From positions 1 to 57,367 of the forward strand of contig JAJRWI010000048.1 of assembly GCA_024276825.1 (NCBI GenBank): a DNA stretch of 57,367 nt, given 5' to 3'. The notes beneath the pieces were generated by a model. It made no database searches, was not told the origin of the DNA, and worked only from the letters and a program-made list of their open reading frames with translations. How positions within the stretch are numbered: position 1 is the first letter of the stretch; the number at the start of each line of letters is the position of its first letter. Source of the DNA: an archaeon (GTDB taxonomy: Archaea; Asgardarchaeota; Thorarchaeia; Thorarchaeales; Thorarchaeaceae). Positions 21,724 to 25,944 of the stretch are shown here, in pieces. The position numbers and the translations under genes are program-made.

Positions 21724-22152
21724 CTATTTCTGGACATTCTCAGCCAGAACCTGTTTAATCCCTTCAAGGCTCCTTAATGAATTCACAAGCTCATCCAATT
21801 CGACTGTCAATTGTCCAGGATTGAAGTAGCACTCATAATAGCATCGTGTGCCCCTGAGGCAGACTCCCGTTGCAAACAAGAGGTCCACAAGTCCACACTC
21901 TTTGAAGACTCTTGACAGGTTTGACAAGAAATCATTAGTCAACTTGGCAATTTCGATACTGAGATATACTATATCATCATCGCTGACGGGGAATATCTTG
22001 ACCTGTCGGTCTTTATACACCAATACCATTAATCCAAGATCACTTCCAAGGCCCTCTTTGAATGCCCTTGGAAATGTTACTTTCTCAGACTCATCAAAAA
22101 CAAGGACTCGTCCCATTGTGGCACCTTCATAACTACCCTCATCATCGGTCAT
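21724..22152 (-). CDS. Putative AbrB-like plus ACT-like regulator
   Basis: N-terminal VFDESEKVTFPRAFKEGLG resembles AbrB; C-terminal beta-alpha pattern ends LRSLEGIKQV. Confidence 0.5.
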   Translation of the reverse strand: MTDDEGSYEGATMGRVLVFDESEKVTFPRAFKEGLGSDLGLMVLVYKDRQVKIFPVSDDDIVYLSIEIAKLTNDFLSNLSRVFKECGLVDLLFATGVCLRGTRCYYECYFNPGQLTVELDELVNSLRSLEGIKQVLAENVQK

Positions 22153-22255: not shown

Positions 22256-23479
22256 TTGAACAGAAGGAACCTTGTCATCTGGTCTCTATACGACTTTGCC
22301 ACTACGCCAGTAGCTTTTGCAATAAATGCGATGTATTTGCCTTTAATGATAATCTCTGCTGGTGGGAATTATGAGGTTGTTGGTCTTCTGCCGCTGATAA
22401 CTGGTATTGTGGCGACCTTCTGGAACCCATTTGTTGGACAGATTATTGACTCATCAACGGATAGATCAAGAACACGCCATTTAGTAATAATTCTATCAGT
22501 CGTGCTGGCCACTGTTTCTATTGTCGGAATGGTCATGCTTCCCCTACTGAATGCGCTTGTTCTATTATTTGGCACAATGTCTATTGGTGTTCAGACAGGA
22601 TGGACTGCGGTGAACTCTTATTTGGCGAGCGAAACAAGAAAAACCCGACTTGGCTCAGCCTCTGGCTTTGGGACTCTAATGGGATATCTGGGGGGAGGAA
22701 TAGGTGCTGGACTTGCTGTGGTAATTGAGTATATGTTTGGGATGAATTATTCTCTACTATTCATTGCCTGCTTTCTGCTTACCTTCGGAATTGCCCCTGG
22801 CATCCTGCTTGAAGAGTCCAGTGAAACGATGGGAAGCGGCAAATCAATCGCTGACGGCCTTTCAGACTCTCTTGATGTTATACGCAGGAGTAGGTCTCTA
22901 AAGGCCTGTCTAATTGCATCAATTCTATGGACTGATGCACTATCAACCATTATGACATTTGCCTCCCTTATTGCCATTGATGTTCTAAATGTGCCTGAAT
23001 CAAATGCATCACTATTTCTTGCAATGGCACTCCCTGCGGCAATCCTTGGTGGCTTTGTTCAGGGCAAGGCTGGAGACTGCTTTGGTCTAGTAAATGTTAT
23101 GATCTTCAATCTTGTGTTTTGGTCTGCAGGCTATTTGCTCATCATGCTTTACGGTGCTTTCATCCCAATTGTGGTCATCTCAACCGTAGCAGGCTTTGCT
23201 TTAGGTGGCTCAATCACTCTAACACGAGCAATATACGCCAAGATTCTTCCTCGCGGCTTTGAAGGGCGCTTGTTTGGCATTGCAGCCATGTTCTTCTTCT
23301 TTGGCGGTGCTATTGGCCCTTTTCTCACAGGTCTTGTGGCAGTCCTGCCATATATGACGCTCAGAACAGCTCTTATTGTGCCCTTTCTCTTTACAATAGC
23401 ATCAGTCCCCTTTCTAATACTTGTTGATGAAAATAGTGTTGCTTTTGAATATGTGACCAAACATAATCATGTGCTTTAG
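22256..23479 (+). CDS. MFS transporter (UMF1/Atg22-like)
   Basis: WSLYDFA, LGSASGFG...GYLGG, RAIYAKILP.G.EGRLFG; 12 TM. Confidence 0.85.
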   Translation: MNRRNLVIWSLYDFATTPVAFAINAMYLPLMIISAGGNYEVVGLLPLITGIVATFWNPFVGQIIDSSTDRSRTRHLVIILSVVLATVSIVGMVMLPLLNALVLLFGTMSIGVQTGWTAVNSYLASETRKTRLGSASGFGTLMGYLGGGIGAGLAVVIEYMFGMNYSLLFIACFLLTFGIAPGILLEESSETMGSGKSIADGLSDSLDVIRRSRSLKACLIASILWTDALSTIMTFASLIAIDVLNVPESNASLFLAMALPAAILGGFVQGKAGDCFGLVNVMIFNLVFWSAGYLLIMLYGAFIPIVVISTVAGFALGGSITLTRAIYAKILPRGFEGRLFGIAAMFFFFGGAIGPFLTGLVAVLPYMTLRTALIVPFLFTIASVPFLILVDENSVAFEYVTKHNHVL

Positions 23480-23731
23480 ATGACTGCCAAATCGTTCCGT
23501 CCTGAAAAGTTTCGCTATATCAGTGATTTAAGAATTCAATATTATTGCGAGTATCGCTTGTTGTTGAAACTTAAACTTGGATCACAGCCTTCTGAATTGA
23601 GTAGAATGGGAACTCAACTACACAATCAAATCATAGATGATGGCTTGGAACAAAAGACAGTCAATTGGACTTTTAGAATAATTCTATTCCTTGCTGTTCT
23701 GGTCTTAACATTTCTCTTAATTCTGTGGTGA
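23480..23731 (+). CDS. N-terminal half of a Cas4-like nuclease with C-terminal TM helix
   Basis: ISDLRIQYYCEYRL...MGTQLH matches the Cas4/AddB N-terminal Cys and G..H motif; ends in IILFLAVLVLTFLLILW. Confidence 0.7.
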   Translation: MTAKSFRPEKFRYISDLRIQYYCEYRLLLKLKLGSQPSELSRMGTQLHNQIIDDGLEQKTVNWTFRIILFLAVLVLTFLLILW

Positions 23732-23736
23732 TACAA

Positions 23737-24396
23737 ATGAACTACTCTGAATTGGCAATGATAGCCCTGCTTTTTACAATGGTATTTGCTTTGCCATACC
23801 TACTATGGCTTAGGCAAACTACTAATTCAAAGCAACTTTTCATAACATCTAAAGTTGCAAATATTTCTTTATATAAATTTTTGAATCTTCTTCCATCAAA
23901 AAGAGAACTCGGTACTCGCCATAGGTTCTACGAGCAATCAGTACGATCACTGGAGCACAAGCTAGTGGGCCGTTTTGACTCTGCAGTCTTTCATTGGAGT
24001 GCAAATGGCCCCGTTCTTGACATGATAATTGAATATAAATTTCCAGTGAGATTCATCCCACAAAAGGCCTATAGCCATGACATGTTTCAGACAGGGCTTT
24101 ATGCTCTTGCTCTTGCAGACTTGGGTGTGATCACAAATAACACTCGACTTGTTGTGCTTTATTGTCTTCAGGGAGTGGCAAGAAAATGTCTGAAATCTAG
24201 AAGGCATGGATGCAGCCTATGCGGCAGGGGAAGGATCTTTGTGAACTCCTTCAAACGGGTCAAAATCATTAAAGCATTGGAACGCCTTGATCAGGTCTGG
24301 TCTGAACTCAGAAGCCCCAAAGCGGGACCATCCAAGAGCAGGTGCATTGCATGCCCATATAGTCGTGGAAATGGATGCAAGTATTCTGCAGTGTGA
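23737..24396 (+). CDS. C-terminal half of a Cas4-like PD-(D/E)XK nuclease with N-terminal TM helix
   Basis: LVGRFD (motif II), IEYK (motif III), QTGLY (QxxxY), CIACPY...C; SD-like GGTGA 5 nt before ATG 23737. Confidence 0.8.
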   Translation: MNYSELAMIALLFTMVFALPYLLWLRQTTNSKQLFITSKVANISLYKFLNLLPSKRELGTRHRFYEQSVRSLEHKLVGRFDSAVFHWSANGPVLDMIIEYKFPVRFIPQKAYSHDMFQTGLYALALADLGVITNNTRLVVLYCLQGVARKCLKSRRHGCSLCGRGRIFVNSFKRVKIIKALERLDQVWSELRSPKAGPSKSRCIACPYSRGNGCKYSAV

Positions 24397-24434
24397 TTGC
24401 AACCATAAGAGTCATTTTCATCTTTGCCTCCAAT

Positions 24435-24851
24435 ATGCCCATGAAAGAACTGAACGAGTTCTACGAGATTGTCCTACAATCCAAGTCAGCCTTAAAAGAG
24501 ATCTACTATTCATTCTCGTCAGAACAAAAAAAAGGGATAGTCAAACCGCTAGTCGCATTGACAATCAAGATTCAGCAAAGCGTTGAAGACCTTGTGCGTG
24601 CATTCAACAAGTCTTCGAAGGCTCGTGCAGTTCTCAAAGACAAGGTCGTTTCAATCTCACTCAAGAAATGGTCGGGCGGTATTCCTTCTCGGGTGAAAAA
24701 TATCATCAAGCACAAGAAGATGAGTCCAACTCAATTGAGTCAATTTGCTGACAGTCTAATGAAGTATCTTGATGAAATTCATTACACGCTGCAAAAATGG
24801 AATAATGACATCAGGGGCTTGGAGGATATTCCGAAACCTCCTAGAAACTAG
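24435..24851 (+). CDS. Hypothetical basic alpha-helical protein
   Basis: Open frame with amphipathic helices; ATG at 24435 or 24441. Confidence 0.65.
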   Translation: MPMKELNEFYEIVLQSKSALKEIYYSFSSEQKKGIVKPLVALTIKIQQSVEDLVRAFNKSSKARAVLKDKVVSISLKKWSGGIPSRVKNIIKHKKMSPTQLSQFADSLMKYLDEIHYTLQKWNNDIRGLEDIPKPPRN

Positions 24852-24852
24852 A

Positions 24853-25944
24853 CTACCAGCGGAGTCTTGCAGCAACCCCACCAAATGACTTGAGTTGAGC
24901 ACCGGATTCCGTGTGTGTTGAGAATACCATCAAGTTCGCATTTGTTGCCATTGTGAGATCGATAAACTCTTCGAGAAGATCGTGTTTGTCCTCAATAATC
25001 ATAAGGGTTTCCACACGACCCTGTTGAAGGGCCTTACGAACCTCTTTCTCACCATAAGCGACTATCGAGCTGCCCTTCATCAGCTCTTCCATGAACTTGT
25101 CCCAAGCCTGTCTTTCGGCATAGATCTCGGTTTCCTTGAGTACTCGAGATGCTTCTTTCATTGCTTGATAAAGGCCAGTTTCATCAACCACACTGACCGG
25201 AATGATTGTTTCTGCGACCTTCTCACGAATTCTGTAATCAAGACCACTCTTCTCCAAGAACTCCTGTGCCCTGATGGTGTTTCCGCCAAGAACAATGGCA
25301 TCCACCTGATCAAGCTTGTCAAGTAGCAACTCTTCAAGAACTCTCGCTGCATGCTTGAAGAACTCTTGCATCTTTTCCTCCCTAATCCTTAGATAACGCT
25401 TAGCACTCTGTCCGCCTGCTCTTGTCTTTCCAATGATATAGAAGTCCTCGTTTTTCACCAGTTCAATATGCTTGCCCTTCAGATAGCCAATTGTGAGTTT
25501 CCCTCCCTCGATGAGTACAATTACAACTAGGCTCTTTGGTTGGGTCATACTCTCCAATTCATCAAGCACGAACTCCCGCCCACATACATAGATAAATTGA
25601 GATATTGGAGCGGGGGGAACAATCATCTCTCTGATCTCCTTATTTGTACCCCCTTCCTCAAGAATTCCGAAGAAGAATACAATGCCGGTCTCAGGGATTT
25701 CGTTCATCTTTGTTAATTCACTGAGAATGGCAGTGAGGTTATCCTGCACGTTCTTCCTGTTGGCCTTGCTTTTAATGTTATCAGCACCCGAGAGTTCAGT
25801 CCTGACAAAACCGATTACGTCAGTGAGACTCTTTGATGGAGGAACATATAATGTAGTGAATGAACTATGCCTGCCTTTGTAGGCCTTCAATTCCTTTATC
25901 TTTCGCTTTAATGCTTGTCTTGCTGCTTCCAGTTCGTCCACCAC
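24853..25944 (-). CDS. prf1: Peptide chain release factor aRF1
   Basis: ADNIKSK, YVCG..F, RAGGQSA.RY, VAYG, QLKSFGGVAARLRW. Confidence 0.95.
   Translation of the reverse strand: MVDELEAARQALKRKIKELKAYKGRHSSFTTLYVPPSKSLTDVIGFVRTELSGADNIKSKANRKNVQDNLTAILSELTKMNEIPETGIVFFFGILEEGGTNKEIREMIVPPAPISQFIYVCGREFVLDELESMTQPKSLVVIVLIEGGKLTIGYLKGKHIELVKNEDFYIIGKTRAGGQSAKRYLRIREEKMQEFFKHAARVLEELLLDKLDQVDAIVLGGNTIRAQEFLEKSGLDYRIREKVAETIIPVSVVDETGLYQAMKEASRVLKETEIYAERQAWDKFMEELMKGSSIVAYGEKEVRKALQQGRVETLMIIEDKHDLLEEFIDLTMATNANLMVFSTHTESGAQLKSFGGVAARLRW

Follow-up and report, generated by a model that had tools for sequence, protein, structure and literature searches.

Two adjacent genes of a Thorarchaeaceae archaeon, here called A and B, probably encode the two halves of a single PD-(D/E)XK nuclease of the Cas4/Exo5 type. 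They lie in a stretch of 57,367 nucleotides (nt) of asgardarchaeal DNA that is referred to as the window (GCA_024276825.1, contig JAJRWI010000048.1, positions 1-57,367 of the forward strand); database relatives carry the name Candidatus Thorarchaeota. In the arrangement that we envision, A would supply the first helix pair of the domain, one cysteine of an iron-sulfur cluster (C23) and the histidine of a GxxLH motif (H48), and B would supply the beta-sheet core (D81, E99, K101, Q118 and Y122) together with the three remaining cluster cysteines (C203, C206 and C214). The hydrophobic helix of A would end at its stop codon and that of B would start on the outside, such that the soluble parts complement each other in the cytoplasm. 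Because the nuclease domain appears to be split over two genes with one helix each, we propose that the enzyme forms only when the halves meet at the inner face of the membrane.

A first-pass annotation of this DNA had described A as a Cas4/AddB-like N-terminal segment followed by a terminal transmembrane helix, and B as a transmembrane helix followed by GRFD, IEYK and QxxxY motifs, a C-terminal CxxC-x7-C and an extra insert with four cysteines, the two genes being in different frames and B having its own GGTGA. All of these features are indeed present (Table 1). Gene A contains ISDLRIQYYCEYR and MGTQLH and ends in the hydrophobic stretch FRIILFLAVLVLTFLLILW, which is directly followed by TGA. 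Translation of B would be coupled to that of A, given that the last codon and the stop codon of A double as the ribosome-binding motif of B. B probably starts at the ATG at 23737 and not at the GTG at 23725 chosen by an automatic open reading frame call, since orthologs align from the ATG.

Orthologous loci were compared in 22 genomes, the window's included, all of one taxonomic family. Overall identity among the A and B orthologs is only 35-50%. At this level of divergence, C23, G44, L47 and H48 of A are invariant across 11 orthologs, and D81, E99, K101, Q118, Y122 and all seven cysteines of B are invariant across 17, a degree of conservation that, on these alignments, is far beyond chance. 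The motif set common to the broad Cas4 family (D, ExK and QxxxY) is complete, and the pattern of one plus three cysteines is likewise complete but spread over two polypeptides.

To which proteins are A and B related? After the B family itself, a B profile next matches archaeal proteins that are single chains of about 230-270 residues, with E values (E) of 6e-9 to 1e-3. Pfam Exo5 is matched above its curated cut-off by six of the nine that were tested (25.9-37.6 bits), and most of those tested also match the PDDEXK_1 and PADLOC Cas4 profiles. An alignment of 16 such proteins is invariant at an N-terminal Cys-Glu, GxxxH, G-D, ExK, QxxxY, W..R and CxxC..C. Profile-profile alignment with hhalign placed residues 14-55 of A on positions 29-70 of the single-chain profile (probability 97%, E 8.5e-11) and residues 76-221 of B on positions 102-252 (probability 99.7%, E 2.8e-25), and the Cys and His columns of A as well as the catalytic and Cys columns of B fall on residues that are invariant in the single-chain relatives. 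The first-pass annotation had made its reading depend on a likeness of A to Cas4, and such a likeness is found over the N-terminal Cys/His segment. The roughly 30 residues that connect GxxxH to the beta core in the single-chain proteins correspond, in the pair, to the helix and stop of A, the start and helix of B and a linker some 50 residues long. In a search of the genome to which the window belongs, the single-chain profile matched B at 23962-24393 and, separately, A at 23516-23644 (E 1e-6), and it detected no single-chain copy in that genome.

Direct comparison with established families gives a weaker signal of the same kind for B. The window's B matches the PADLOC Cas4 profile with E 6e-5; among its 17 orthologs, PDDEXK_1 is matched by seven (best E 9.4e-6) and Cas_Cas4 by four (best E 0.007). 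The best sequence match of the B profile in the PDB is EXO5 (E 0.014), over the C-terminal W..R..P..CxxC..C region. Taken singly, the A orthologs give marginal matches to Exo5, Dna2 and PDDEXK_1, each in one ortholog (Exo5 in 1 of 11, E 0.013), and a PDB profile search with A returned only chance-level matches to coronavirus nsp7 (E of about 0.1). Assignment to the Cas4 family rests on profile-profile and fold evidence, because the curated Pfam cut-offs (PF12705, PF01930 and PF09810) are not reached.

The fold was modelled on an ortholog (L009) in which A and B share one frame, by reading the single TGA between them as Trp to give a 303-residue fusion. The AlphaFold model has a mean predicted local distance difference test score (pLDDT) of 76.8, with a confident core. 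Its closest structural matches are the Cas4 domain of 7mi4 (Z score (Z) 12.0), MGME1 (Z 10.5) and human EXO5 (Z 10.3, 19% identity), followed by the nuclease domain of DinG (Z 10.3), type I-C Cas4 (Z 9.7), AdnA (Z 8.7) and SSO0001 (4ic1; Z 8.2). The best of these matches are all nucleases of the Cas4 type and span model residues 6-280, and hence both halves. A prediction of the window's A and B as a complex, which the first-pass annotation had proposed as a check on whether the cysteines converge, scored 0.93, compared with 0.00 for the best of three controls; this mark is reached by 58 of 80 solved complexes and by 2 of 110 mismatched pairs, a calibration that is rough here owing to the use of our own alignments. 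The runs share at least 82% of contacts, with a partner pLDDT of at least 80. The confident interface comprises residues 17-30 of A, around C23, and residues 202, 206-208 and 212-214 of B, in the Cys triad, together with all four cysteines of the insert; the C23 region and the triad thus both lie in the predicted interface. Because the halves of split genes tend to pass such a test by their likeness to solved single-chain structures, the score shows that, in the model, A and B fit together like one Cas4 domain, and it is not proof of binding in the cell.

What might such an assembly do? Residue equivalence with the family suggests, in agreement with the complex model, that C23 of A and C203, C206 and C214 of B are the ligands of a [4Fe-4S] cluster, which would so bridge the two chains. 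The active site would equally be composite, with H48 contributed by A and the D, ExK and QxxxY residues by B, and the four-Cys insert of B is probably a second metal site. By analogy with Cas4, Exo5 and MGME1, the predicted substrate is DNA, likely single-stranded ends, and the predicted site of action is the inner, cytoplasmic face of the membrane. Alternatively, the pair might not be a DNA nuclease in vivo and might instead cut RNA, act as an iron-sulfur or redox sensor or serve as a DNA-binding anchor at the membrane. The function is deduced from family membership only, and an extra four-Cys site next to a shared cluster would suit a sensor. We nevertheless regard this alternative as unlikely, for the full catalytic set (H, D, ExK and QxxxY) has stayed invariant at 35-50% identity, which argues that catalysis has been kept.

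How are the two halves held at the membrane? Over the 22 loci, the most hydrophobic 19-residue segment of A averages 2.19-3.48 on the Kyte-Doolittle scale and ends 0-4 residues before the stop codon in all but one; that of B averages 2.12-3.12 and begins within the first 12 residues, again in 21 of 22. Summed over all loci, the 15 residues that precede the A helix contain 46 lysines and arginines, as against 1 beyond the helix; for B, 2 precede the helix and the 15 residues that follow contain 61. Because of this bias and the positive-inside rule, both soluble parts are predicted to reside in the cytoplasm: A has, by sequence, the features of a tail-anchored protein with a cytoplasmic domain (a single helix at the extreme C-terminus and no N-terminal signal sequence), and B would be an N-out signal-anchor protein with its domain on the same side. 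With A tail-anchored and B N-out, the gene break would fall exactly at the outer turn of a would-be transmembrane hairpin. A cytoplasmic location fits the need to receive an iron-sulfur cluster. The genome also encodes an ArsA/Get3-type ATPase (E 5e-90) and two insertases of the EMC3/TMCO1 type, which may conceivably be used for inserting A. The membrane anchoring of both halves that the first-pass annotation had claimed is therefore supported by hydrophobicity and by a strong charge bias.

It is conceivable that the hydrophobic helices do not cross a membrane at all and act as a zipper that joins the halves within a soluble complex, the more so as the predicted contacts between the halves are made by their soluble parts anyway. 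This seems improbable to us. The segments are 19-20 residues long, have Kyte-Doolittle means of 2.1-3.5 and flanking Trp residues, and occupy the very ends of the chains, and the positive charges are concentrated on the domain sides (46 and 61) as opposed to the far sides (1 and 2). Moreover, the single-chain relatives, which need no zipper, contain no hydrophobic segment at the position of the split; two of them have a borderline window, in the beta-sheet core only.

Might the split itself be an artefact? A search for the B protein matched 21 of 24 further genomes of its taxonomic family; elsewhere in the phylum, 16 genomes of other families gave no match. At all 22 loci B is immediately preceded by a homolog of A in an open frame of its own, and the split and both helices, whose conservation in related genomes the first-pass annotation had put up for checking, are retained throughout. 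The frame of B relative to that of A varies, all three offsets being represented (14, 6 and 2 loci); A terminates with TGA in 18 loci and with TAA in the other 4. The start of B lies between +26 and -70 nt from the A stop, mostly within a few nucleotides, the largest overlaps reflecting uncertain start choices; common junctions are a TGATG or TAATG overlap, or a gap of 4-5 nt after GGTGA. At least 133 clusters of A-type proteins of 75-105 residues exist, mostly from Thorarchaeota, all named 'hypothetical protein' and called as separate genes by independent annotators. An exhaustive search of 1.84 billion representative proteins with the B profile yielded 21 representatives of the B family at E < 1e-30, none longer than 252 residues and none carrying an A part. 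A search with A against longer proteins likewise found none that contain it, which is weak evidence when taken alone, and no unsplit intermediate with a transmembrane hairpin was seen among 48 distant relatives. The possibility raised at the outset, that homologs would prove to be single-chain, is not what these loci display. As far as can be judged from comparing them, A and B are two separate, translationally coupled genes, and the split is real and old.

These observations also bear on two proposals by which A and B would be a single protein. One is that an assembly or sequencing frameshift, or a fresh pseudogene, has broken a Cas4-like gene with a transmembrane hairpin: no stop codon interrupts the B frame over roughly the 15 codons that precede its start, and one indel near 23685-23731 would fuse the frames, and still this is very hard to sustain when 22 of 22 independent genomes are split in three frame relations with the stop always right after the A helix, when more than 130 A-type clusters of 75-105 residues exist, when no fused form turned up among the 1.84 billion representatives or in the search of longer proteins with A, and when catalytic and Cys residues are invariant in both halves. 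The other, that programmed frameshifting or stop-codon read-through yields a fused product, would suit the two loci in which A and B share one frame with a single TGA between them (L009 and L024), but we give it next to no credence, as the other 20 loci need a -1 or +1 shift, no single mechanism fits them all, and the junction provides B with a ribosome-binding motif and a start codon of its own. Three frame relations with a stop after A across 22 loci are not what assembly error, programmed frameshifting or read-through would generate, but are what two separate, coupled genes can give.

What, then, might a split, membrane-anchored nuclease be for? A and B occupy a fixed chromosomal slot, with a divergent gene for a 142-residue protein on one side and, on the other, a gene for a 137-residue protein (gene C) and, beyond it, a convergent aRF1 gene. 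Four relatives have lost the pair or carry a broken version. G013 cleanly lacks it between the same neighbours, and G005 retains no more than a decayed N-terminal piece of A. In G002, an in-frame TAA stands in A right after CEYR (L002 1226-1228) while the rest of the frame is intact and conserved; the codon may reflect a sequencing error or a nonsense mutation of very recent date. The A gene of G020 has the 3' end of a TnpB/Cas12f-like gene in place of its N-terminal part (L017 1-576; PF07282, E 3.3e-16) and B is intact, which looks like an insertion of the IS200/IS605 type that has disrupted A. The decay of A where B is gone fits a mutual dependence of the halves. The pair is inherited vertically among housekeeping genes and has been lost repeatedly, a pattern that points to an accessory and non-essential role and suggests that the pair is neither a core repair enzyme nor part of a mobile defence island.

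Nor is the pair linked to CRISPR (clustered regularly interspaced short palindromic repeats) adaptation in this genome. The first-pass annotation had seen no CRISPR array or cas1 in the window, and this holds: no tandem repeat or CRISPR array was found there, and the genome's only Cas1 match (E 3.8e-69) adjoins its only match to Pfam PF01930 (62.5 bits, above cut-off) on another contig, C11, where the Cas1 and Cas4 genes stand side by side at the contig start (L013 and L014, 11-1680). The genome therefore has a CRISPR adaptation module that is separate from the split nuclease.

Several observations weigh against the nuclease assignment or fail to lend it support. The window's B matches PDDEXK_1 with E 0.009 and 16.4 bits, below the curated cut-off of 22 bits, and gene A alone matches no Pfam, NCBIfam or PADLOC model. 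Confidence in the fold model is low at both Cys-bearing ends, and the predicted interface contains nothing from A 62-83 or B 1-35, the transmembrane helices not being confidently paired. Gene context gives no functional partner: gene C, the constant neighbour, also occurs in Thorarchaeota genomes without A and B and in one genome of a second taxonomic family, and its family returned no Pfam, PDB or Atlas match of note. The surroundings of the single-chain relatives are heterogeneous as well, comprising proteins with oligonucleotide/oligosaccharide-binding (OB) folds, RNase_H_2, RNase_T, NUDIX and ribosomal genes, which hints only weakly at DNA metabolism, without a conserved partner.

Our fuller proposal is put forward as a tentative one, to which we would give somewhat less than an even chance: that A and B form an obligate two-chain, membrane-embedded nuclease with a shared cluster and a shared active site, which serves membrane-localised, assembly-gated end processing or entry surveillance and arose specifically in Thorarchaeota from a soluble ancestor of the Exo5/Cas4 kind. 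A corollary is that activity would be confined to places and times at which both halves are inserted next to each other and an iron-sulfur cluster is successfully assembled. As substrates, DNA that crosses the membrane, be it viral, transferred or taken up, and membrane-proximal repair intermediates are plausible; to assign the pair a part in DNA uptake, surveillance or defence is speculation.

The neighbourhood has some features of its own. The first-pass annotation had suggested an operon with the gene for a major facilitator superfamily (MFS) transporter; the suggestion stands for this genome, where A starts right after the MFS stop codon, but the link is not conserved, the MFS gene being upstream in only 4 of 12 loci, and we have dropped it as a conserved operon partner. 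Gene C follows B directly in 12 of 12 loci and is modelled as a four-helix bundle (pLDDT 92.8) whose structural matches are generic bundles only. We rejected it as a functional clue, on the grounds that it belongs to no family, has a generic fold and occurs without A and B. The DNA motif upstream of gene C is kept at the DNA level across different reading frames; in 8 of 12 loci it begins 32-34 nt before the gene C start codon, and the remaining loci have related A/T-rich variants. This motif probably serves as the archaeal promoter of gene C, in which case A and B would be a separate two-gene unit. The aRF1 gene reads GRHSSF where other aRF1/eRF1 proteins are expected to have the GTS loop. 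The gene for the 142-residue protein stays put in genomes that have lost A and B. Among the single-chain relatives, the Heimdallarchaeota protein P0043 (L028 1859-6711) follows two genes with weak or faint OB-fold matches (tRNA_anti-codon and REPA_OB_2) and overlaps the end of a gene for a 573-residue protein of no known family, possibly a single-stranded-DNA context for the ancestral type.

Table 1. Positions of the A/B genes, their predicted functional elements and neighbouring features in the window
Feature	Position	Strand	Description
142-residue gene	21724-22152	-	Divergent; 60-69% identity; no Pfam family; weak NCBIfam PRK08577 match only (E 0.002)
MFS transporter gene	22256-23479		MFS_1 E 2.5e-25; last base of stop codon directly before gene A start
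Gene A	23480-23731	+	83 residues; N-terminal nuclease piece (residues ~12-55), then C-terminal tail-anchor helix; 11 orthologs aligned
A Cys23 codon (QYYCEYR)	23546-23548	+	Predicted N-terminal [4Fe-4S] ligand; invariant in 11/11; aligns with invariant single-chain Cys
A His48 codon (GxxLH)	23621-23623	+	Predicted active-site or metal-site residue; aligns with invariant GxxxH of single-chain family
A transmembrane helix (residues 64-82) and terminal Trp	23669-23728	+	Predicted; 19-residue Kyte-Doolittle mean 2.78; nothing after; C-terminal hydrophobic helix in 22/22 loci
GGTGA ribosome-binding motif	23727-23731	+	Made of last Trp codon and TGA stop of A; 5 nt before B ATG
Gene B	23737-24396	+	219 residues, frame differing from A; signal-anchor helix, linker, catalytic core, four-Cys insert, C-terminal three-Cys motif
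B transmembrane helix (residues 6-24)	23752-23808	+	Predicted; Kyte-Doolittle mean 2.20; N-terminal hydrophobic helix in 22/22 loci
B catalytic motifs GRFD (D81), IEYK (E99, K101), FQTGLY (Q118, Y122)	23968-24102	+	Invariant in 17/17 orthologs; GRFD 23968-23979; E99-K101 of IEYK 24031-24039
B four-Cys insert C143/C151/C159/C162	24163-24222	+	All invariant; all in predicted interface with A
B C203-x2-C206-x7-C214	24343-24378	+	Predicted three C-terminal [4Fe-4S] ligands; invariant; aligns with human EXO5 CxxC..C
Motif (A/C)AAAGAGT(C/A)AT(C/T)T	24405-24419	+	Upstream of gene C; probable promoter
Gene C	24435-24851	+	~137 residues; ends in PRPPK
aRF1 gene	24853-25944	-	Convergent; 363 residues; NIKS present; 67-79% identity across family

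If the proposed assembly were borne out, what would follow? To our knowledge, nucleases of the Cas4, Exo5, MGME1, AddB and Dna2 types have all been studied as soluble proteins in which an iron-sulfur 'staple' ties together the two ends of one chain. In A and B the staple would tie together two chains at a membrane, and the pair would offer a natural test of whether the cluster serves assembly or catalysis. In evolutionary terms it would represent a gene naturally split where a transmembrane hairpin makes its outer turn. For Asgard cell biology, an Asgard lineage would gain a predicted tail-anchored protein whose enzymatic domain can be recognised, tail-anchor targeting being a eukaryote-like trait. 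Both genes are listed as 'hypothetical protein' in public records, and because the 83-residue half matches no family, the predicted nuclease is invisible to current annotation.

The pair resembles the solo-Cas4 proteins (PMC5704561; PMC12501428, Methanosarcina mazei) in being a predicted Cas4-family nuclease away from CRISPR-cas loci. The phylogenomic survey of Cas4 by Hudaiberdiev et al. (2017; PMC5704561) describes no membrane-anchored or two-gene form; 'transmembrane' and 'split' are absent from its text, and the sole 'membrane' is a gene name in a figure legend. Full-text searches of the literature, together with this survey, yielded no membrane-anchored or split member of the Cas4/Exo5 family.

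With the Cas4 of CRISPR systems (PF01930; SSO0001, 4ic1; Cas4-Cas1, 7mi4), the pair shares the predicted fold, the motif set and the four-Cys pattern. It differs in that A and B do not stand beside cas1, cas2 or an array, are split and appear to be membrane-anchored. The N-terminal Cys motif of A, CE(Y/K), is also unlike the CPR/K that is typical of Cas4. EXO5 has an N-terminal Cys motif of the 'CE' type as well as the arrangement of one plus three cysteines around its [4Fe-4S] cluster, and its likeness to the fold model extends over both halves. EXO5 (PF09810; PDB 7lw7 and 7lwa) is, however, a soluble single chain, and A and B stay below the Pfam Exo5 cut-off, which only the single-chain relatives exceed.

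The closest counterparts are the single-chain archaeal Cas4/Exo5-like nucleases of 230-270 residues, such as P0033, P0043 of Heimdallarchaeota and P0041 of Thermoprotei, which are annotated as 'PD-(D/E)XK nuclease family protein' or 'Cas4 (RecB family)'. They have in common with A and B an N-terminal (I/V)SxIAxQxYCE...GxxxH segment, G-D, ExK, QxxxY, W..R and CxxC..C, and some of them (P0033, P0038 and P0045) also carry a Cys-rich insert at the place of the B insert. Whereas these relatives are one polypeptide without a helix at the position of the split, A and B are two chains, each with a helix. The family itself is already known, and what appears to be new here is a form of it that is encoded by two genes and predicted to be anchored in the membrane.

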